Shown: positions 7,950 through 18,345, numbered from the stretch's first letter. The stretch: DNA of 46,083 nt from an uncultured Clostridia bacterium (GCA_947628205.1 CANQYX010000005.1:1-46083); one strand, 5' to 3'. Notes: generated by a model from the sequence alone, not told the origin. Program-made: numbers and translations.

Positions 7950-10595
7950 TTATTTTCTTGGGTTTTTAATGTTGGCTTGAGCGGCAGCAAGGCGCGCAAT
8001 TGGAACGCGGAATGGGCTGCAGCTTACATAATCTAGGCCAATTTTGTGGCAGAATTCAATGCTTGAAGGGTCGCCACCATGCTCGCCACAAATGCCGGCG
8101 TGCAAATGTTTGTTGGCAGTTTTGCCAAGCTTAATTGCCATATCCATAAGTTTGCCAACGCCGGTTGTATCCAAGCGCGCAAATGGGTCGCTTTCATAAA
8201 TTTTATTAGCATAATATGAAGGCAAGAATTTGCCAGCATCATCACGGCTGAAACCGAATGTCATTTGAGTTAAATCGTTTGTGCCAAAGCAGAAGAAATC
8301 TGCTTGTTTTGCAATGTCATCGGCAGTTAGTGCGGCGCGCGGAATTTCAATCATTGTGCCAACCTCATATTTAAGGTTAGATTTTGCAGCTTTGATAACC
8401 TCATCTGCCGTTTCAACAACTGTCTTTTTAACAAAAGCAAGTTCTTTAACCTCGCCAACTAGCGGAATCATAATTTCTGGAACAACGTTCCAATCTTTAT
8501 GCTTCTTTTGAACATTTATTGCGGCTTTAATAACAGCCTTAGTTTGCATAACGGCAATTTCTGGGTAAGTAACCGCCAAACGGCAGCCTCTGTGCCCCAT
8601 CATTGGGTTAAATTCGTGCAGGTCGCTAATTAACTGCTTAATTTGAGCAACGGTTTTGCCCTGAGTTTTGGCTAGCGCCTTAATATCCTCTTCCGCGGTT
8701 GGAACGAACTCGTGAAGAGGTGGGTCTAAGAAACGAATTGTTACTGGCTTGCCTTGAAGAGCCTCCATTAAGCCCTCGAAATCTTTTTGTTGCATAGGCT
8801 CAATTTTTGCAAGTGCGGCTTCGCGCTCGGCAACTGTATCTGCGCAAATCATTTCGCGGAATGCGCCAATGCGGTCTGGGTCGAAGAACATGTGCTCTGT
8901 CCTCGTTAAGCCAATGCCCTCTGCGCCTAATTCTACCGCGCGTTTTGCATCGGCTGGAGTGTCTGCGTTGGTGCGAACGCCCAAAGCGCGATATTTATCT
9001 GCCAACTTCATTATGCGGCCGAAATAACCGCTGTTAGGGTCAGCAGGGATAGTTTTAATTATTGTATCATAAATTTTGCCGGTTGAGCCATCTAGAGATA
9101 TGCCATCGCCCTCTTTATATGTTTTGCCAGAAAGGGTGAAACGCTTTTTCTCTTCATCCATCTTAATGTCGCCACAGCCGGAAACACAGCAAGTGCCCAT
9201 GCCTCGCGCAACAACTGCCGCGTGCGATGTTTGGCCGCCACGCACAGTTAAAATGCCTTGCGCATATTTCATGCCCTCAATGTCCTCTGGGCTGGTTTCA
9301 AGGCGGACGAGCACAACTTTTTTGCCTGCTTTGCCCTCTTTAACCGCATCCTCAGCCGTGAACACGATAGAACCTGCCGCTGCACCTGGGCTGGCAGCAA
9401 TGCCCTTGCCCACAACATTTTTCTTGTCCGCTTCTTTAAGCGCGTTAGGGTCGAAGGTTGGGTGCAAAAGCATGTCTAGTGATTTTGCATCGATTTGCAT
9501 CAAAGCTTCTTTTTCGGTTATCATGCCCTCATCGATAAGGTCGCACGCAATGCGGATGGCGGCCGCTGCTGTGCGTTTGCCATTACGAGTTTGAAGCATG
9601 TATAAATGTTTATCCTCTATTGTAAATTCCATATCTTGCATGTCTTTGTAATGCGTTTCAAGAGTGTTGCAGATATCTTTAAATTGTTTGTAAACTTCTG
9701 GCATAATTTCTGCCATTTTTGAAATAGGCATTGGGGTGCGCACGCCGGCAACAACGTCCTCGCCTTGCGCGTTCATCAAAAATTCGCCCATCAAGCCCTT
9801 TTCGCCCGTTGCTGGATTGCGTGTGAAGGCAACGCCCGTGCCGCTTGTTTCGCCCATATTGCCGAATGCCATCATTTGAACATTGACTGCTGTTCCCCAT
9901 GAATAAGGAATGTCGTGATCCATACGATAAACGTTAGCGCGTGGGTTATCCCAAGAACGGAACACCGCTTTGATTGCCTCGAACAACTGCTCTTTAGGGT
10001 CGGTTGGGAAAGGTTTGCCAATTTGCTTTTGATATTCTGATTTAAACTGGCGCGCAAGAACTTTAAGGTCGTCCGCCGTTAAATCTACATCATAAACAAC
10101 GCCTTTTTTCTCTTTCATTTGGTCGATAAGCTTTTCAAAATACTTTTTGCCAACTTCCATTACAACGTCGCTGAACATTTGGATAAACCTGCGATAGCAG
10201 TCCCACGCCCAACGAGGGTTGCCGCTTTTTTGGGCAAGAGTTTCAACAACTTCCTCATTCAAGCCAAGGTTTAAAATTGTGTCCATCATGCCCGGCATAC
10301 TTGCTCTTGCACCTGAACGAACAGAAACAAGCAATGGGTTTTGCTTATCCCCAAACTTTTTGCCAGTGATTTTTTCCATTTTGGCAATGTATTGCATAAT
10401 TTCGGCACGAATGTCCTCGTTAATTTGCCTGCCATCCTCATAATATTGAGTGCAAGCCTCGGTTGAGATTGTAAACCCTTGAGGAACGGGCAAACCCAAA
10501 TTGGTCATTTCTGCAAGGTTGGCACCCTTGCCACCAAGAAGTTCACGCATGTTTGCGTTGCCTTCGCTAAAAAGATAAACATATTTCTTTTTCAT
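7950..10595 (-). CDS. ppdK: Pyruvate, phosphate dikinase
   Basis: LLGGKGANLAEM, SVRSGARASMPGMMDT, GGQTSHAAVVAR (phospho-His), GTNDLTQ, GICGEHGG. Confidence 0.98.
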   Translation of the reverse strand: MKKKYVYLFSEGNANMRELLGGKGANLAEMTNLGLPVPQGFTISTEACTQYYEDGRQINEDIRAEIMQYIAKMEKITGKKFGDKQNPLLVSVRSGARASMPGMMDTILNLGLNEEVVETLAQKSGNPRWAWDCYRRFIQMFSDVVMEVGKKYFEKLIDQMKEKKGVVYDVDLTADDLKVLARQFKSEYQKQIGKPFPTDPKEQLFEAIKAVFRSWDNPRANVYRMDHDIPYSWGTAVNVQMMAFGNMGETSGTGVAFTRNPATGEKGLMGEFLMNAQGEDVVAGVRTPMPISKMAEIMPEVYKQFKDICNTLETHYKDMQDMEFTIEDKHLYMLQTRNGKRTAAAAIRIACDLIDEGMITEKEALMQIDAKSLDMLLHPTFDPNALKEADKKNVVGKGIAASPGAAAGSIVFTAEDAVKEGKAGKKVVLVRLETSPEDIEGMKYAQGILTVRGGQTSHAAVVARGMGTCCVSGCGDIKMDEEKKRFTLSGKTYKEGDGISLDGSTGKIYDTIIKTIPADPNSGYFGRIMKLADKYRALGVRTNADTPADAKRAVELGAEGIGLTRTEHMFFDPDRIGAFREMICADTVAEREAALAKIEPMQQKDFEGLMEALQGKPVTIRFLDPPLHEFVPTAEEDIKALAKTQGKTVAQIKQLISDLHEFNPMMGHRGCRLAVTYPEIAVMQTKAVIKAAINVQKKHKDWNVVPEIMIPLVGEVKELAFVKKTVVETADEVIKAAKSNLKYEVGTMIEIPRAALTADDIAKQADFFCFGTNDLTQMTFGFSRDDAGKFLPSYYANKIYESDPFARLDTTGVGKLMDMAIKLGKTANKHLHAGICGEHGGDPSSIEFCHKIGLDYVSCSPFRVPIARLAAAQANIKNPRK

Positions 10596-10663
10596 AATTC
10601 TCCTTTAGTTTAAAATAAGTTTTCAAACTATTTAAGTTTACCCAAAATAAAAACAAAAAGCAA

Positions 10664-12085
10664 CTATTTAGTTGCCTTTTTGTTATTTTTAGTTATATTT
10701 TTTGTTGGCTTTGCCACTGCCTGTTTTTTTGTGGCAGGTTTTGAACTAGCTTTTGTTGATGGGCGTTTTGTTGTTTTGCTTTTTGTTTGTTTTTTTGCTT
10801 GCGTTGCTTTGCTTGCTGGTTTTTTTGCCTGCGTTGCTATTTTAACTTTTGGTGCGGCGGCAGTTTCTTCCGTTTGCATTGCCAAGGCAGCATTTTCCCC
10901 TATCTTTCTAACAAGTGCTTTATATCGCTTTTGTTCCGCCTGAATTTTTTCTTTTTCCTCGGTGTAATATTTCGCAATTTTAGTTGGTTTTACACCATCT
11001 TTAAACATCTGCTCGCAATTGCGGTTTACATCCCTTAATTTTTGCAAAGGGCGCAAAATAAGGCCTTTTCTTAAATAATATTTTCGGATATTTTCTGGGC
11101 GGTTATCCGTTTTCCAAAGCAGGTTTACATATTCCAACTTCTGCCCTTCGGGTGCCTGCGCCAGAACTTTATATTTGGTTTTAGTGCTCATTCTATAACC
11201 AATGCCATTTTTAACGCAAATTTCATCTGTTAACCTGCGTTTTTCTTCAACCACATCGCATTCCAAGAAGGCAAGTTGAACATTTTTTAGTGTATTTCTT
11301 AAAAGGACATAAATCAAATAAGCAACTGGGATAAACAGCACAATTGTCAGTGCAATTGGAGTGGTTAAAATGTTAATAACTCGGGCAGAAATTTGCGAGC
11401 CAATAGAGTTATCGTAACAGCCAACAACCATATTTTCGTTAATTAACCAATTGTCAACCGCAATTTCGTTGGTTTTAGGCACAAGGTTAGACGAGCCATA
11501 AGTTTTGAAATATCTAGTTCCGTTTGCATCCTCATACACCGCCTGAATGTGGTGGAAAACCAGCAATTTATTTGAGCGCGCTACCTGTTTAATTTCTGGA
11601 GATAATATTCCAAAAAAGGTGGATAATGTCAATTTACTTTTAACGGGATTAGTATTTTCAACTTCGGTTAAATATTTTTCATTAATATGAGAATCGTTAG
11701 CGTAGAAAGCAATAATATCATTAGCGTGCAAAGTTTTAGTGTCCACCGCACGCACAATAACGGTGTCCCCTTTATAAAAGCCACTGTTTTCCATCGAGCC
11801 GGAGGCAATTTGCATGCTAAAATAACCCGCGCATGAAGCCGGCATATTGTTCATCTTGTTATAAACGGTTATGCCAACGAAAATTAAACAAAAAGAAATG
11901 AAAACCGTGTTGGCACAAGATAATACCCCTCTAATAATTCTTCTATAAAGAGGCGGTTTCTTTAAAAGGTTTTCATTAATAACTCTTTTTTTATTATATT
12001 TTTTTGAAAGGCGAAGCGCAACCTTTTGCAGTTTAAGTTCAACGCTGTCGTCCTCAACAACCTTGACATTAACCCCATGAGTCAT
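10664..12085 (-). CDS. SipW-like (S26B/ER-type) signal peptidase I with long C-terminal extension and Lys/Ala-rich tail
   Basis: TM segment, IASGSM (Ser), GDTVIV, DIIAFY, VFHHI (His), KTYGSSN..D..VVG, second TM, then about 200 extra residues. Confidence 0.75.
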   Translation of the reverse strand: MTHGVNVKVVEDDSVELKLQKVALRLSKKYNKKRVINENLLKKPPLYRRIIRGVLSCANTVFISFCLIFVGITVYNKMNNMPASCAGYFSMQIASGSMENSGFYKGDTVIVRAVDTKTLHANDIIAFYANDSHINEKYLTEVENTNPVKSKLTLSTFFGILSPEIKQVARSNKLLVFHHIQAVYEDANGTRYFKTYGSSNLVPKTNEIAVDNWLINENMVVGCYDNSIGSQISARVINILTTPIALTIVLFIPVAYLIYVLLRNTLKNVQLAFLECDVVEEKRRLTDEICVKNGIGYRMSTKTKYKVLAQAPEGQKLEYVNLLWKTDNRPENIRKYYLRKGLILRPLQKLRDVNRNCEQMFKDGVKPTKIAKYYTEEKEKIQAEQKRYKALVRKIGENAALAMQTEETAAAPKVKIATQAKKPASKATQAKKQTKSKTTKRPSTKASSKPATKKQAVAKPTKNITKNNKKATK

Positions 12086-12086
12086 A

Positions 12087-12695
12087 CTAAATCACCGAAA
12101 TTGTTATAACTAATTTCCCCGAGCAATGTGCGTTGGCATCAGGGTCTATCACTCTTAAATATACCGAGATTAGCAAATTGCCATTATCGTCATGGTCTAC
12201 AACATCGCCAGAAGATAAATCGTTCTGAATGCCATCATTGTTAAGCTCCCATTTAATATCGCAATTTTCGGTATTTTGCAACAACTCGCTAAAATCAATA
12301 TTATATCTATATCCTACCCTAGATTTATTCTCTATATTATAATCCAGCCTTAGATAACCTTCTGCCGGCAAATCGTGAACAAATTCAGGTTCTCTTATGC
12401 CCGAGCTTTCCCCTTTCCCAAAAGAAAACTCTTTATCCTCAATTAAGCTATCATTATCCCCTATTACCTCATGGGTGCTGTAATGAATGGTTAAAACAAC
12501 ATCTTTTGGGGGGGTGTAAATAGAGTTATAAACAATGAAATATGTTAAAAAACCCAAACCGATAAGCAACAAAAGGAACAACAAAATTAAAATAATGTTT
12601 AAAATTGTTCTTTTGCGCTTGCGCTGTTGAGTGTTTTTATTAACAATTTTTCTTATATCTTGCTGAGTAGCAGTTTTTTGGCCAGCATCTGCCAT
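12087..12695 (-). CDS. Membrane-anchored protein, divergent relative of the two upstream secreted proteins
   Basis: Basic stretch plus long TM; YLRLDYNIENK, ISVYLRV and terminal CSGKLVITI echo motifs of the paralogs. Confidence 0.65.
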   Translation of the reverse strand: MADAGQKTATQQDIRKIVNKNTQQRKRKRTILNIILILLFLLLLIGLGFLTYFIVYNSIYTPPKDVVLTIHYSTHEVIGDNDSLIEDKEFSFGKGESSGIREPEFVHDLPAEGYLRLDYNIENKSRVGYRYNIDFSELLQNTENCDIKWELNNDGIQNDLSSGDVVDHDDNGNLLISVYLRVIDPDANAHCSGKLVITISVI

Positions 12696-12737
12696 TTTTC
12701 ACCTCACAAAACTAAATTAATAAATTTTTGTTATTTT

Positions 12738-13388
12738 TTAACTTTTTCCAACTGCAGTTTCCAAATTCCAAACAAATTTGCCAGAGAAACTAGCGTCCGA
12801 GCCAAGCGCGCTTTCTGGAACTTTAACAACCACATAAGCATACATTGTTTTATTATCTGTTTTGCCATCTTCCATAGTAAAAGTAAGAATTGTGCCTGAT
12901 TTATTCTCTAAAGATTTAACCTGATCATTGCCATCCTTAATTGCTTCTGGTGAAAGTTGGGTTGCATTGTAGCCAGCATAAACTTGGATGCCGGTTGTAT
13001 CAACAGGATCAGTGTCGGTATATGTTAAAGTGGCAGTGAAAGTTTTGCCAGTGTTTACAAAAACATATTCAAACACAACATAGTTAGCATCCGCTGTTAA
13101 ATCTATTTGCTCTTTTGTAGGTGACAAAGAACCGGTTGTGCCTGGGCCTGCTTTAAACGTAATTGAATCTTGTTTATCTGCAGTTTGCATTTTGTTAGGG
13201 CCGGTTGTGCCTTCGTACCAGTTAGCGGAAACAGTGCACTCCACCTCTCGGGCGATGTAGCTAACATTAATGGCACTTTCAAAGGTTTGGTTGCGGGCAG
13301 CAAAAACTGCAACGATTGCCACAACTGCAACAACGGCAACCAAGCAAACCGAACCAATTGATAAAATTATTTTTGTTTTTGTTGACAT
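12738..13388 (-). CDS. Secreted TasA/camelysin-like fibre subunit candidate (paralog 2)
   Basis: GGAGG RBS before MSTKTK; signal peptide ending AVFA; beta-rich; YVVFEYVFVNTG; terminal FSGKFVWNL. Confidence 0.7.
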   Translation of the reverse strand: MSTKTKIILSIGSVCLVAVVAVVAIVAVFAARNQTFESAINVSYIAREVECTVSANWYEGTTGPNKMQTADKQDSITFKAGPGTTGSLSPTKEQIDLTADANYVVFEYVFVNTGKTFTATLTYTDTDPVDTTGIQVYAGYNATQLSPEAIKDGNDQVKSLENKSGTILTFTMEDGKTDNKTMYAYVVVKVPESALGSDASFSGKFVWNLETAVGKS

Positions 13389-13438
13389 ATTGTCCTCCAT
13401 ATTATTTTTAGCAATTAATATTAAAGTATTCTACCCTT

Positions 13439-13467
13439 ATTTTAACATTAAAAGTTAATGTTGTCAA
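13439..13467 (-). promoter_or_regulatory. SigA promoter TTGACA-17-TAAAAT for paralog 2, the anchor gene and the sipW-like gene
   Basis: Direct consensus match with extended TG. Confidence 0.7.
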
Positions 13468-13524
13468 ACAAAATGTGCAAAATTTCTTAAATTTTGCAAA
13501 TAAAAATGCAATTTATTAAAAATA

Positions 13525-13563
13525 AAAAAACCACACTTGTCAGCTTTAAAGTGTGGAATTTTT
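13525..13563 (-). terminator. Terminator after paralog 1
   Basis: ccacactt/aagtgtgg stem followed by a U tract on the minus strand. Confidence 0.65.
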
Positions 13564-13577
13564 AAAAATCTTATAAA

Positions 13578-14252
13578 CTACGTTGCGTTAAGATCCCAAG
13601 TGAATGTGCCAGAGAATTCTGAATTAGTGCCTAAACCATCTTCTGGAATAGAAACTATTACATAAAGATAGAATGGGCCACCTTCTTCTGTATTTTCAGG
13701 CACGCTTGCGCTTTCAATGAAAACGCCATCTTTGTCACTTTCATATTTTGTTGCACCTTGAACTTGTTCAGTAGTGTTCCAAGTTGTGGTGGTTAATTTT
13801 GCACCATCACTCTTAATATAAATATCAAAATTGCTATCTGTTGGCTCATTATCTTTATAAGTTAACTTAGCAGTGTACGCTTTAGAACCTGTGTTTGTGA
13901 ACACATATTCAAAAACAACATATTTGTTGGTTTCGGACAAATCAATTGTTTCTTTTGTAGGTTTAAGTTCGCCAGTTTCATCTGGGCCGGTTGGGCCAGC
14001 TTTAAATTCAATGACATCGTTCCCTTCGCCTTTAGTTTGTCCGTCCGTTGTCATAGGTTGAGCTTCGCCTGAACCTTCATACCAATTGGCTTTAACCGAA
14101 CCTAGAATTTGGTGTGCGGTGTAACTAACGTGAATTTCACTTGTAAATTGTTGTTTGCTTGCCGCATAAACTGCAACGATTGCAACAACTGCAATAACTG
14201 CAACTAAACATACAGCACCAACGGATAATAAAATTTTATGTTTTGTTGACAT
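13578..14252 (-). CDS. Secreted TasA/camelysin-like fibre subunit candidate (paralog 1)
   Basis: AAGGAGG RBS; MSTKHKILL..AVYA signal; shares ANWYEG, FKAGP, YVVFEYVF.NTG and FSG.F.W.L with the neighbour. Confidence 0.7.
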   Translation of the reverse strand: MSTKHKILLSVGAVCLVAVIAVVAIVAVYAASKQQFTSEIHVSYTAHQILGSVKANWYEGSGEAQPMTTDGQTKGEGNDVIEFKAGPTGPDETGELKPTKETIDLSETNKYVVFEYVFTNTGSKAYTAKLTYKDNEPTDSNFDIYIKSDGAKLTTTTWNTTEQVQGATKYESDKDGVFIESASVPENTEEGGPFYLYVIVSIPEDGLGTNSEFSGTFTWDLNAT

Positions 14253-14462
14253 TTTCCCTCCTTAACATAATTAAAACAATGCCCACGAACAACAGTTTGC
14301 TGACAAAACGGTTGCCCCACACCCTACCTATTGTTTTAAAGACAATACAACTTGGCAATTAAGTTTGCCACCCTAACATGAAAGCCATGTTGACTAAACA
14401 ATTTGAAGTTTGTTTAAACTTAATAATTTGCCGAACATCTTTTGAGCAGATAATTATTATCT
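14253..14462 (-). ncRNA. Candidate structured 5' leader RNA
   Basis: About 210 nt between a consensus promoter and the ATG; several nested hairpins; higher GC than other intergenic DNA here. Confidence 0.4.
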
Positions 14463-14467
14463 ATTTA

Positions 14468-14496
14468 ATTTTATAACTTTACAAAAAAGATGTCAA
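14468..14496 (-). promoter_or_regulatory. SigA promoter TTGACA-17-TAAAAT
   Basis: Direct consensus match. Confidence 0.75.
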
Positions 14497-14543: not shown

Positions 14544-15218
14544 CTAAATAAAAGAAAAACTTTTAACATCCACGCCAAATTTTAGATACACAACATTATG
14601 GAGCAAGCGAACGGCTTGTTTTAACAAATTTAGGTTGGAAGTTTCGGCATTTTGCAAACCATCAACTGACTTTAAAATGGAATAAACCTTTTTGTCTATC
14701 AGCAAAGCGTTTTCAACTTTTTCTGGAGTTATGTTGCCCGTGTTAATGTCTAGATAGGCATGGTCGGTTTCGTAAAAATCTAACTGCAAGCCCGAAAATT
14801 TTAAAAAATTTAAAATATATTGAATTGTTGCAACGTATTCATTTTGCGTTTCAACATTTTTTAATGCGTTTAAGGTTAGCAAAAATAAATCTTGCTCGGG
14901 CTTTTGCACGGGCAAAATTGAACGGACCATATCCAAAACAAGGTAAGCGCAAATTGTTTTAGAATAGTTTTTTAATATGTTTGGAAAACTATCTATAATA
15001 TCGGCTTGGGTTACTGTTAGCGACCTGCCCTTTTCTGCCACCACAAAATTTGCAAGCACAAATGGTTGAGCAACTGCCTTATATTTTGCTTTTTCTTTTT
15101 TTACACCCGAAAATTTGGCGTTTAACACGCCATGCTCAAGCGAAAAAATTGTGGCAAGCTTGTCCGCATCCTTATAATCGGCAACAGTTAAAATTATTCC
15201 CTTAAATTTTTCTATCAC
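14544..15218 (-). CDS. recO: DNA repair protein RecO
   Basis: KGIIL...DYKDADKLATIFS..HG; lies downstream of era; likely GTG start at 15218. Confidence 0.88.
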   Translation of the reverse strand: MIEKFKGIILTVADYKDADKLATIFSLEHGVLNAKFSGVKKEKAKYKAVAQPFVLANFVVAEKGRSLTVTQADIIDSFPNILKNYSKTICAYLVLDMVRSILPVQKPEQDLFLLTLNALKNVETQNEYVATIQYILNFLKFSGLQLDFYETDHAYLDINTGNITPEKVENALLIDKKVYSILKSVDGLQNAETSNLNLLKQAVRLLHNVVYLKFGVDVKSFSFI

Positions 15219-15304
15219 ACCAGTATTATAACAAAAAAATGAACAAAATAAAAAAATTTTGCAAAACGATGCAAAATTTTTAATTTCTTTATGTTGCAAA
15301 AAAA

Positions 15305-15595: not shown

Positions 15596-17080
15596 CTATT
15601 CTTCAAATTTTAAGCCGAGTTCGGCTATGGCTTTGGGATTGTTGCGCCAGTTTTCTTTTACTTTTACATATATTTGCAGGTTGATTTGTTTGCCTATTAA
15701 TTTTTCGGCATCCTTGCGCGATAGGGTGGAAATTTTTTTAATCATCTCGCCCCCGTGACCGAGAATTATGGCTTTGTGATTTTCCTTTTCGCAATAAAGG
15801 TCGGCAAAAATTTCAATTGGATTGGCGTTTTCGTTGTAAGCGGTTACCACAACTTGAATGCCGTGCGGAATTTCGTCATCTAGGCATAACAAGGCCTTTT
15901 CGCGCACAATTTCTGCCACTAGTTGGCGCAGGTTTTTGTCCACATAATCATCGGGCGGATAATAGCGCATTTCGTGGTCGAATGTGGGCAGATATTTTTT
16001 TATCATTTCAATTAACACATCGCAATTTTTGCCTTTGAGCGCGCTTATTGGCAAAATTTCGTCCGTTTGCACAATGCGGTTGAGTTCGGCAAGCTGCGGA
16101 TAAAGTTTTTCGTAAGTCGATTCGTCAACCTTATTTATAAGCAGAATTTTTTTGGCGGTTGTGTTTACTCGACCAATTAATTTTTCATATTGCGGCACAA
16201 GTGGCTTTTTGGCATTAATTAGCAGCAAAACAATTTCCGTGTCCTCAACTGCTGAGGCAATTTGCTTGTCCATTTCGTCATCAACCGCCGTTTTGCGCTT
16301 GTGATAGCCGGGTGTATCCACAAAAACGATTTGGCAGGTTTTGTCGTTATAAATGCCACGCAAATTTTCGCGCGTGGTTTGGCTTTTAGGGCTAACAATT
16401 GCCACCTTTTGCCCTACAAGGCGGTTAATTAGTGTGCTTTTGCCTGCGTTGGTTTCGCCTAAAATTGTTACAAATCCACATTGAAATTTTTGAGTGTTCT
16501 TTGGCGAATTTGTGTTTTTTGTTTTAGTTGGTTCTGTTTGTTTTTGTTTGGTTTGTTCGTTTGTTTTAGTTGTTTTATCTGCCGTTTTTGCTTGTTCGGC
16601 AATATCTCTTGTTATGCCAAGTTCGTTTAAAATTTCGCCTTGCAACTGCTCCATAATTTTGGCATCGGTTTTTTTGATGTGATCGTAACCCAAAATGTGC
16701 AACATGCCATGGCAAAACAAAAAGCATATTTCGCGGTTGAGGCAGTGGCCATACTCGTTGGCTTGCTGCTTGGCGCGGGCAGAGCAAATGTATATATCCC
16801 CTATCGTTAGCGTTTTGGTGGACTGATCAATTTCAAGTTTATAATCATTAATATTAAATTTTTCGTTTGGCTTTATATTTATATAAGGATAAGTTAACAC
16901 GTCTGTCACCGCATCAATTTTTCGCGTTTGCGCGTTAAGTTTTTGAATTTGCTTTTCAGTTACAAAATTCAAATTGACCTCAACACATTTTGGCAGCGCA
17001 AATTTTTTTAAAACAAAATTGTAAACATTATTTAAATTTTTTAAAATTTCCTCATCAACCTTGCCAAAAACTTCTAACAT
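15596..17080 (-). CDS. ybeY-era: Fused rRNA maturation RNase YbeY plus GTPase Era
   Basis: N-part has TDVLTYP, GDIYIC and HGMLHILGYDH. C-part has GETNAGKST, QTTR, DTPG, NKVD, and EIPH with the KH GxxG. Confidence 0.93.
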   Translation of the reverse strand: MLEVFGKVDEEILKNLNNVYNFVLKKFALPKCVEVNLNFVTEKQIQKLNAQTRKIDAVTDVLTYPYINIKPNEKFNINDYKLEIDQSTKTLTIGDIYICSARAKQQANEYGHCLNREICFLFCHGMLHILGYDHIKKTDAKIMEQLQGEILNELGITRDIAEQAKTADKTTKTNEQTKQKQTEPTKTKNTNSPKNTQKFQCGFVTILGETNAGKSTLINRLVGQKVAIVSPKSQTTRENLRGIYNDKTCQIVFVDTPGYHKRKTAVDDEMDKQIASAVEDTEIVLLLINAKKPLVPQYEKLIGRVNTTAKKILLINKVDESTYEKLYPQLAELNRIVQTDEILPISALKGKNCDVLIEMIKKYLPTFDHEMRYYPPDDYVDKNLRQLVAEIVREKALLCLDDEIPHGIQVVVTAYNENANPIEIFADLYCEKENHKAIILGHGGEMIKKISTLSRKDAEKLIGKQINLQIYVKVKENWRNNPKAIAELGLKFEE

Positions 17081-17256: not shown

Positions 17257-18345
17257 TTAATTTATATTTCCTAAAATTGTTAAATTGGCAAAAACAAAAA
17301 GTGTGTTGTTTACAATTTCCGTTTTAATTTGCTCGTCTATCAACTCGTCATATTGCGGCAACATGGCGTAAGCTTGTGCTTTGGTTTTTTCAATTAATTC
17401 GGCTTTTTCGGTTTCTAAATTGTGCGTTATTGTTGTTGGCGCAAGTTCATAATATGTTGTAGCATATCGGCTATATGGGATAAGGGTTGAAATTTGCTCT
17501 GCCCGTGTTTGCGTTTCAAAATATGTAAATTTGTTTTTGGCTTTGCCTTTATATAAATTCAAATTGAAAAGTTTGTATTGATAAACAACCTGCTTTTTCC
17601 CCGTGCGTTTTAAAATAACTTCCTCTTGTTGCAATTTATTTGAGTTTACAATAAAAATTTTGGCTTCGATTTCAGCAAGCGGGTTAACCGCAATTTGTTC
17701 GCCATCGGCGTTTACATTAAAGGGCAAAACCAGCATATCGCCCGCGTTGACGTAATCCCCCACCTTGCAATTTACCGTGCCGGTTACCACATTAATCTTT
17801 GTTATTATGCCGCTATATTTGGCTTTAATTGGCTCAAACTTGCCTTCTGCATACACCAATTTTTCGCTAAGGTTGATTATTATGTGCGTGCCTTCGCGGA
17901 TAACGGACACTTGTGCGATGCGGTCGTAATTATTTAGCAAAATTGTTTCAATTTCCTCGCTTGACTGCAAATTGATTTTCCCAGTTTTTATGCCGTTATG
18001 TTTTAGCACTTCAATTATATCTGCCGTTTTTAATTCTTTTGTGCCAAAAACCGAAATTTTCCATGTAAAAGATGATGCAAAAATGAAAAACAAACTTCCA
18101 AAAAAAACACCCAACACTAGCCCCAAATTTGCAAGCACAAATTTTGGCAACCGCTTTATAAAATTTGGTATTTTTTTTGCTTTAAAATTTTTTATATACC
18201 GCTTAACTTTATGTTCGTTTTTGTCATCCGTTTCAAAAGTTATGTGGTTATGTTCCAAAATGTTGACGTTATACAAATTAACGCGCTTTATGTAAAGCGT
18301 TTTTAAAAGATTATCCACATCATAACCGGTTAAATCAAATTTCAT
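17257..18345 (-). CDS. yqfD: Sporulation protein YqfD (SpoIV-like)
   Basis: TM, WKISVFG, IKAKYSGIITKINVVTG..VKVGDYV; synteny with yqfC and ybeY. Confidence 0.85.
   Translation of the reverse strand: MKFDLTGYDVDNLLKTLYIKRVNLYNVNILEHNHITFETDDKNEHKVKRYIKNFKAKKIPNFIKRLPKFVLANLGLVLGVFFGSLFFIFASSFTWKISVFGTKELKTADIIEVLKHNGIKTGKINLQSSEEIETILLNNYDRIAQVSVIREGTHIIINLSEKLVYAEGKFEPIKAKYSGIITKINVVTGTVNCKVGDYVNAGDMLVLPFNVNADGEQIAVNPLAEIEAKIFIVNSNKLQQEEVILKRTGKKQVVYQYKLFNLNLYKGKAKNKFTYFETQTRAEQISTLIPYSRYATTYYELAPTTITHNLETEKAELIEKTKAQAYAMLPQYDELIDEQIKTEIVNNTLFVFANLTILGNIN

Follow-up and report, generated by a model that had tools for sequence, protein, structure and literature searches.

A dedicated signal peptidase locus of a probable surface fiber and adhesin-display system in an uncultured Clostridia bacterium

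The arrangement described here has its closest known counterparts in Bacillus (TasA) and in archaea (Abp, Tafi and threads). In TasA, an N-terminal strand donated by one subunit completes the sheet of its neighbor, as seen in a solved structure (PMC9674648). The AbpX-type loci, according to bioRxiv 10.64898/2026.01.04.697558, combine major and minor subunits with tip proteins, anchors and a dedicated signal peptidase I (SPase I). We have analyzed a stretch of 46,083 nucleotides (nt) from an uncultured Clostridia bacterium (GCA_947628205.1 CANQYX010000005.1:1-46083; the window, hereafter), in which four genes, A to D, between positions 10664 and 14496 appear to extend this design to an unnamed family of 475 clusters in gut Clostridia. 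On balance, we favor the view that this operon provides a sortase-independent surface fiber or display system, operating in the manner of TasA, Tafi and AbpX. It represents a new variant of the TasA/Tafi-like systems, and the building of a fiber is its most likely function. The four genes (lengths in amino acids, aa) are as follows.

13578-14252, minus strand: gene A, 224 aa, from the list of open reading frames (ORFs) of the window
12738-13388, minus strand: gene B, 216 aa; open reading frame extends from 13400 (12738-13400 = 220 aa)
12087-12695, minus strand: gene C, 202 aa, from the same ORF list
10664-12085, minus strand: gene D, 473 aa, an extended signal peptidase I

They are flanked by recO (14544-15299) and the pyruvate phosphate dikinase gene ppdK (7950-10595). 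The start of B is probably the ATG at 13388, with GGAGG upstream, and the 216-aa form matches the database copy, while the start codon of D lies 1 nt past the stop codon of C. A previous reading of the sequence (the original prediction) had proposed a four-gene locus with two tandem paralogs, which is borne out by the similarity of A and B (46% identity, E-value [E] of 2e-45). It had also called the system sortase independent, and this still stands, with no match to PF04203 (sortase) at E ≤ 0.01 in a host genome (986,243 bases in 36 contigs) that is 94.5% complete, and no LPXTG or other C-terminal anchor in A (ending in ...FTWDLNAT) or B (ending in ...LETAVGKS).

The two subunits share three conserved features that were already noticed in the original prediction and that are all kept across an alignment of 50 family members (ca. 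180 to 250 aa, chosen among 150 listed matches). The signal peptide ends in AVYA in A and AVFA in B; it is followed by an alternating strand (QQFTSEIHVSY in A and QTFESAINVSY in B), and the proteins finish with FSGTFTWDL (A) or FSGKFVWNL (B). In the whole alignment, the N terminus reads M-x-x-K-x-K, ca. 24 hydrophobic residues and then V-[FYLW]-A-A, with further motifs S-x-I-x-V-x-Y in the strand, VFEYxFTN, and DAxFSGxFxWxL at the C terminus. Residues K6, A30, Y44, F114, F118, W219 and L221 are each conserved in at least 90% of the members. The n-region of the A-type signals has only 5 to 6 residues, and the predicted cleavage site of A is AVYA/A, after the near-invariant A30. Mature A would be acidic, with a pI of 4.3 and 16% D+E. 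The two segments at its N terminus are the following.

14163-14252, minus strand: signal peptide of A, residues 1-30, assigned from sequence, conservation and a helix at 3-31 in the model, with putative cleavage at its end
14109-14162, minus strand: predicted donor strand of A, residues 31-48, ASKQQFTSEIHVSYTAHQ, assigned from the three-copy interface and conservation (Tyr44 at least 90% conserved)

The family to which A belongs is large, with 475 representative clusters at E ≤ 1e-3, a number that falls to 115 at E ≤ 1e-10 and to 7 at E ≤ 1e-30, and is visible only by exhaustive search; a word-index search with A recovered only 6 proteins, 2 of them from the window itself. As anticipated, the subunits fall outside named families, and neither A nor B matched any Pfam or NCBIfam family. 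A search of PDB sequences with the A profile gave only chance matches to 14-3-3 proteins (best E, 0.071). Membership in DUF6550 was considered and rejected. Weak matches were found for 11 of the 50 members, below the gathering score (best E, 2.1e-4), and the only one reported with coordinates, in B, covers just the N-terminal signal region (residues 4-45; 13245-13388, minus strand). It is possible that DUF6550 is a separate family whose export signal resembles this one. A search of titles and abstracts found nothing on the A family or the D-type architecture in Christensenellales-like bacteria; supplements were outside its coverage, so that this is no proof of absence, and some A-family members are possibly listed in the supplementary tables of the TasA, Tafi or AbpX papers.

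The AlphaFold model of the A monomer (pLDDT 88, pTM 0.83) is a secreted beta-sandwich, closed and self-complemented, with its own strand 40-47 in place. The picture changes when three copies are predicted together (residues 31-224 with the 50-member alignment). The scores were 0.00, 0.56 and 0.49 (median, 0.49), against 0.00 for all three controls with unrelated proteins. The contacts of the best run join residues 31-48 and 50 of one copy to residues 206-223, 93-114, 53-57, 81-83 and 200-202 of another, and the closest pairs are 221:36, 219:38 and 222:33. The N-terminal strand is thus modeled antiparallel to the C-terminal FSGTFTWDL strand, a geometry that points to donor-strand complementation. 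As to the donor-strand groove that was expected from the original prediction, the monomer model is closed, and the three-copy model is strand swapped in two of three runs. From these models, A is predicted to polymerize by donor-strand complementation. Foldseek searches with the whole A model were of no use here, since they retrieved mostly mu-homology domains at low TM-scores (0.2 to 0.3), probably owing to the N-terminal helix.

Gene C codes for a membrane-anchored relative of the subunits. The protein has a long hydrophobic segment, two Cys in the ectodomain, and the motifs YLRLDYNIEN and CSGKLVITI, in which the original prediction had seen echoes of A and B. It appears to be a bitopic membrane protein with a basic cytoplasmic N-terminal tail, a transmembrane (TM) helix and an ectodomain of ca. 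140 aa, and it lacks a conserved A-x-A site. No significant similarity between C and either A or B was found by BLASTP. Homology became apparent by hhalign when 30 C-type proteins, trimmed through the end of the TM helix, were compared with the A alignment trimmed past the signal peptide (probability 96.1%, E 3.2e-9, 114 columns). This ectodomain-only comparison is preferred to a jackhmmer search from C, which merged it with the whole A family (115 matches among 1338 ORFs) and was not relied on, because the hydrophobic N termini could drive that result. With phmmer, all nine matches to C at E < 1e-3 among the 1338 ORFs of related loci were the ORF abutting the D-type gene. The 30 aligned proteins have a TM helix behind a variable basic cytoplasmic tail (ca. 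100 residues in some) and lack a conserved Ala-Ala junction. They look like true bitopic membrane proteins, unlike the A-type ones. The two Cys are not conserved among them, so a disulfide was discarded as a feature of the family. C is most likely a membrane-proximal base or anchor.

Gene D was predicted to be a Ser/His signal peptidase, and Ser97 (in SGSM), His178 and Asp211 are indeed invariant in 31 aligned homologues. Its catalytic boxes correspond in alignment to SGSM and H...GDNN..D of SEC11C and SEC11A. SEC11A/C are the only sequence matches in the PDB (a search with the D sequence alone gave 0 matches) and also the top Foldseek matches. The protein has an S26 fold flanked by TM helices on its N- and C-terminal sides, two in total, and the catalytic domain sits between conserved cytoplasmic segments.

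11951-12085, minus strand: cytoplasmic N-terminal segment of D, residues 1-45, conserved, with an EDDSV motif and invariant L26, Y30, R34 and N37
11366-11848, minus strand: extracytoplasmic S26 catalytic domain of D, ca. residues 80-240, with Ser97, His178 and Asp211, between the two TM helices
10856-11278, minus strand: cytoplasmic C-terminal helical domain of D, ca. residues 270-410, with invariant EEKR280-283, D287, C290, W324 and C357
10667-10855, minus strand: basic low-complexity tail of D, residues 411-473, pI 11.7, 33% K+R, predicted to be disordered

The C-terminal domain has ca. 130 conserved residues across the 31 homologues; a VIA structure search with it gave generic helical hairpins only, and the ESM Atlas gave no usable match. 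The tail, rich in K, T, A and S, is absent in some homologues and exceeds 300 residues in others. We recovered 183 homologues of D at E ≤ 1e-3 among 6821 candidates; no Pfam domain is precomputed for at least 120 of those listed, among which the few with a name appear as "hypothetical protein [Clostridia bacterium]." In 25 of 30 M73 loci, the D profile also matched SipW-like ORFs of ca. 200 aa that neighbor the M73 genes. The best NCBIfam models for D are the archaeal-type and SipW ones, both below threshold, and D is, judging from its sequence, a divergent S26B relative and not an equivalog. Clustering with the housekeeping LepB was a concern that can be put aside. D carries His at the general-base position, where LepB-type enzymes have Lys. 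A genome search with the LepB-type model TIGR02227 did not match D, and its sole match was C1:38212-38796 (45.7 bits, cut-off 47). That region (C1:38137-38862, locus L010:1426-2151) encodes a canonical Ser/Lys LepB-type signal peptidase I of 241 aa with SMFPTL and KRLVAGPND boxes. The invariant Ser/His/Asp, the likeness to SipW and archaeal enzymes, and the separate LepB-type gene together indicate that D would be a second, dedicated and divergent S26B peptidase. Its predicted architecture, an S26B core between conserved cytoplasmic domains, is new, and we found it described nowhere.

Linkage of the subunits to the peptidase gene was another point on which the original prediction depended, and it is very consistent. 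We scanned one genome per species and found 57 loci with a D relative, in metagenome-assembled genomes labeled uncultured Clostridia, Christensenella, Christensenellales and Candidatus Onthoplasma. D was of the full type (at least 300 bits) in 51 of them. Leaving aside nine full-type loci with less than 1.8 kb upstream, one to five A-type genes precede D on the same strand in 42 of 42 loci. Where 700 nt or more are available upstream (47 loci), a C-type gene ends within 28 nt of the start of D in 29 cases; these C-type calls are partly circular (the profile was built from the same ORFs), and the position beside D is independent of them. Six loci (L065-L070) have a weaker, 345-aa D-like gene in a different arrangement, with an A-like gene downstream and not upstream, and in four of them (L066, L067, L068 and L070) a second D-like paralogue of ca. 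450 aa precedes the 345-aa one. Among 201 sampled genomes of the order, A-type genes were found in four, exactly the four with the strongest D-like matches, and in all four, the A- and D-like genes share a contig and lie within ca. 1 kb. Within this sample, full-length D was present only in the genome described here and in one more (G080). The system is patchy even within the family. The three points at which the original prediction had exposed itself (closed folds lacking a donor-strand groove, a LepB-like peptidase and unlinked homologues) have all been examined, none overturned it, and its interpretation is supported.

The locus is one part of a wider adhesin-display system, beyond what was envisaged in the original prediction. 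Eight genes of this genome carry the A domain. Three are short (A, B and one on contig C14), and in the other five the domain heads proteins of 565 to more than 1081 aa. Leucine-rich repeats (LRR) are visible by eye in four of the five long proteins and confirmed as LRR_5 for those on C12 (P0039) and C20 (P0089); the one on C23 has no Pfam family. Six additional proteins have only the signal-plus-strand N terminus, without the beta-sandwich.

C4:27709-28854, plus strand: strand-only protein
C2:66521-68185, minus strand: strand-only protein
C22:4037-5404, plus strand: strand-only protein
C27:5582-6751, plus strand: strand-only protein
C10:35388-36434, minus strand: strand-only protein
C31:7550-10897, minus strand: strand-only protein

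Five of these are paralogues that begin with MFKSRTKF...FVFC, continuing after the predicted cleavage site with LDRQQLDGSVNIQY; the sixth is a DUF285/LRR protein of 1115 aa with ...FVLA followed by ATNSSLGSDIVINY. A Tyr is found 14 residues past the predicted cleavage site in A-type proteins, the five paralogues and the 1115-aa protein alike. A pattern composed after the fact (a hydrophobic 18-mer, then [STDG]x[IV]x[IVL]x[YF]) retrieved 12 of the 722 ORFs of at least 150 aa, all of them module proteins. In total, at least 14 genes of this genome begin with the module, eight with the beta-sandwich and six with the strand only. A word search with a strand-only N terminus (residues 1-50) returned three proteins, all from this genome, and relatives were found by profile search instead. 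A 48-residue profile of the module gave 7, 14, 2, 20 and 3 matches in five other D-bearing genomes of 1.0 to 1.4 Mb. From 30 loci of these genomes, 18 distinct proteins have the full A domain and 10 do not (2 of the 10 are doubtful). Strand-only proteins are located in L118, L121, L124, L127, L129, L132, L135 and L137, and all four that were scanned carry LRR_5 or DUF285 repeats. The six D-bearing genomes (G000, which is the one described here, and G501 to G505) are small, about 1.0 to 1.4 Mb, yet hold 2 to 20 module proteins, a large share of their coding capacity for surface display. In the strand-only proteins, found in at least four D-bearing genomes, BspA-type LRR_5, DUF285 or DUF6273-type domains follow the module directly. 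Regarding the A domain, 48 of the best 150 of the 475 family representatives have at least 300 aa, and in all 48 it is single and N-terminal; of nine long members scanned, six have BspA-type LRR_5, one has PMP/beta-helix repeats and two have nothing known. What is new here is the presence of the signal-plus-strand module at the head of BspA-type LRR adhesins, some having the beta-sandwich and others lacking it, in four genomes or more.

Transcription signals were predicted at the following positions.

14468-14496, minus strand: promoter-like site P1 (TTGACA, 17 nt, TAAAAT), 5' of A, 11/12 matches
13439-13467, minus strand: promoter-like site P2 (TTGACA, 17 nt, TAAAAT, TG extension), 5' of B-C-D, 11/12 matches
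13524-13556, minus strand: intrinsic-terminator-like hairpin plus T-run after A, 8-bp stem, 10-nt loop, -13.7 kcal/mol, z -3.77
10655-10680, minus strand: terminator-like hairpin at the operon end after D, from the terminator scan

P1 and P2 are the top-scoring sigma-70-like sites of the region, and they are to be taken as consensus matches only, of unproven function, since the region has 37 promoter-like sites where 17.5 are expected from shuffles. The hairpin after A was missed by the terminator scanner because its loop exceeds the scanner maximum of 8 nt. These predicted sites agree with the promoter and terminator that had been claimed for the major subunit, and A is probably the major, abundant subunit on account of having both of its own; the major and minor roles are read from that layout alone. 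The leader of A (ca. 208 nt) seems unstructured, its fold being indistinguishable from shuffled sequence (z -0.02), and a riboswitch or other leader RNA was discarded, with no Rfam match above the gathering score. Beyond recO, on the side away from the operon, a single 494-aa ORF (15596-17080, minus strand) joins YbeY (residues 8-154) to Era (MMR_HSR1, 204-317; KH_2, 403-479) through a K/T/Q-rich linker; ybeY and era are normally separate adjoining genes. Next to it (17257-18345, minus strand) there is a homologue of the stage IV sporulation protein YqfD (PF06898, E 1.3e-46), despite a genome of only 986 kb.

The sequence of events that we propose is the following. Pre-A and pre-B would be exported with their long signal peptide, and D, the dedicated membrane peptidase of the ER/archaeal/SipW type, would cut after the conserved Ala30 (AV[FY]A/A). 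The freed amphipathic strand 31-48 (S-x-I-x-V-x-Y) would quit its own beta-sandwich and insert beside the C-terminal strand (FSGxFxWxL) of a neighbor, and in this way the subunits would chain by donor-strand complementation, with A probably as the abundant one; the polymer length, like the cleavage site, is something that we infer. C, translationally coupled to D, would remain uncleaved in the membrane, most likely as the base or anchor. The BspA-type LRR adhesins with the module (five with the sandwich, six without) are probably grafted into or onto the fiber or its anchor.

Several results weigh against this proposal or depart from what had been expected. The link to TasA/camelysin that had been expected did not appear. 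PF12389 (Peptidase_M73) matched none of A, B and C at E ≤ 1, none of the 50 family members at E ≤ 0.01 and nothing in the genome at E ≤ 1, and the A profile had 0 matches among 191 ORFs from 30 M73 loci. When A was compared by hhalign with an M73 profile of 26 sequences, the alignment was confined to the signal peptides (probability 80%, 33 columns), and the mature parts gave a probability of 0.9%, against 0.6% for the reversed control. A weak lead comes from the ESM Atlas, in which the nearest Pfam-bearing cluster to A (score 0.91) has PF12389 in 22% of its members. The SipW-class signal peptide was not recognized either; the SipW-cognate model TIGR04088 did not match A or B at E ≤ 1, and genome-wide it had a single chance match elsewhere (12.7 bits, cut-off 19). 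D itself scores below the cut-offs of the archaeal model TIGR02228 (sigpep_I_arch; 33.3 bits versus 51.85) and of the SipW model NF046067 (25.6 bits versus 190). One of the three complex runs failed (0.00), the contact agreement between runs is "at least 0%," and the median of 0.49 comes from a predictor calibrated on two copies with its own alignments, not on a supplied alignment, and supports binding without showing it. The hydrophobic segment of A, with ca. 24 residues, is also compatible with an uncleaved membrane anchor. No RNA runs containing the locus are listed, and the four runs that contain it are DNA from one rabbit-gut study.

Some of these observations fit a display system without polymers, in which the A-domain proteins would be monomeric or self-complemented surface, secreted or type II membrane proteins, the sandwich a stalk or spacer for the LRR, and D an enzyme that matures or sheds them, with no fiber involved. 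The closed monomer with its own strand in place, the length of the hydrophobic segment, the failed complex run and the 48 of 150 best representatives in which the domain is the N-terminal module of a large adhesin would all be natural under this explanation, which we consider unlikely. It does not account easily for the confident strand-swapped interface in two of three runs when the three controls gave 0.00, and loci with one to five tandem stand-alone genes for subunits of ca. 200 aa without cargo are hard to explain as stalks. Besides, other adhesins carry the donor-strand motif in the absence of the sandwich, which suggests an independent function for the strand, and the Ala-Ala junction at the end of the helix is conserved in A-type proteins but not in the C-type ones.

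A different role could be imagined for D, which might act mainly as an assembly chaperone or regulator, like SipA, the catalytically inactive signal-peptidase homologue of Streptococcus pyogenes pili, leaving the cleavage of A and B to the LepB-type enzyme; however, a catalytic triad that is invariant in 31 homologues and aligns with the SEC11 boxes is unexpected for a dead enzyme, and this seems very unlikely. It is harder still to believe that A and B are spore-associated coat or appendage proteins, as the nearby YqfD gene and the first description of TasA in association with spores (PMC9674648) might suggest. The promoter-like sites are of the sigma-70 type, and the LRR adhesin cargo indicates a vegetative cell surface. 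Moreover, in Bacillota a housekeeping block comprising yqfD, ybeY-era and recO is conserved, and the operon simply follows recO as an insertion.

Returning to the fiber or display system that we favor, a broader and more doubtful extension can be put forward tentatively: the operon might be the core of a general "plug-and-socket" surface display that replaces sortase in small-genome gut Clostridia. Its clients would be exported proteins that start with the family signal and an S-x-[IV]-x-[IV]-x-Y strand. Once cut by D, such a protein would plug by its strand into the open groove of an A-type subunit or of the membrane-anchored socket, C. The stalk would consist of A/B, and A-domain-LRR fusions would be stalk subunits that bear side-mounted adhesins, with the strand-only LRR proteins as caps or tips, since they could donate a strand but not accept one. 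The cytoplasmic domains of D might couple export and processing to assembly or regulation. The module may be the main mount for BspA-type LRR adhesins, considering that at least 14 module genes were found in a 986-kb genome with no sortase detected, and it would then bear on the attachment of these bacteria to hosts or partner microbes. The hosts of the A family are uncultured, with genomes of ca. 1 Mb, and otherwise known from metagenomes only. A bare donor strand as a portable attachment tag makes a testable case. Neither Pfam nor NCBIfam has a model for the A/B domain, the C-type anchor or the D-type peptidase, and each could receive one.

The locus can also be compared with the chaperone-usher type 1 pili, in which the N-terminal strand of the next subunit likewise completes an unfinished Ig-like or beta-sandwich subunit and adhesins join through the same module. 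They are Gram negative and need a periplasmic chaperone and an outer-membrane usher, unlike the system of A. The A model aligned to self-complemented FimA (6r7e, 6r74 and 6erj) with Foldseek TM-scores of 0.25 to 0.38, so low that the likeness is one of analogy and not of membership. Within the class Clostridia, the sipW-bsaA locus of C. perfringens (PMC7395162 and bioRxiv 10.1101/2024.11.04.621531) likewise links SipW to a polymerizing matrix protein; BsaA forms intermolecular isopeptide bonds according to the titles of these sources and is set beside A by description only. With the TasA superfamily at large (TasA, AbpA, AbpX, CanA, Saci_0406 threads and Tafi), the locus shares a neighboring gene for a dedicated signal peptidase I and, in silico, the donor-strand interface. 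The biomatrix loci AbpX/AbpA of this superfamily (bioRxiv 10.64898/2026.01.04.697558) resemble ours in their acidic subunits and AlphaFold-type donor-strand predictions. They differ in that the AbpX-linked SPase I is described with ten TM helices, compared with two in D, and in that the bacterial loci have SLH or LPXTG anchors plus sortases, and here no sortase was found.

The haloarchaeal Tafi loci (PMC12337348) match the parts list, with pilin paralogues, a dedicated signal peptidase (TafD) and assembly by strand donation. Tafi is archaeal and partly Tat secreted, and its peptidase works with the separate DUF5305 accessory TafG and with TafC, a tip protein. Our locus is from a bacterium and has Sec-like signals; a Pfam scan detected no DUF5305, and the peptidase has cytoplasmic extensions of its own. 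As in tapA-sipW-tasA of B. subtilis (PMC9674648), a dedicated Ser/His SipW-type peptidase gene adjoins its substrate genes, independently of sortase, the subunit is a beta-sandwich with a donor strand (only predicted in our case), and an accessory relative is included in the operon. On the other hand, A has no detectable Peptidase_M73 homology, and its signal falls outside TIGR04088, while C, unlike the secreted nucleator TapA, seems to be an uncleaved membrane protein with a subunit-like domain. D, with 473 aa and conserved cytoplasmic N- and C-terminal domains, also departs from the SipW-like genes linked to M73 (ca. 200 aa). Finally, in contrast to tapA-sipW-tasA, the subunit module is here fused to LRR adhesins.

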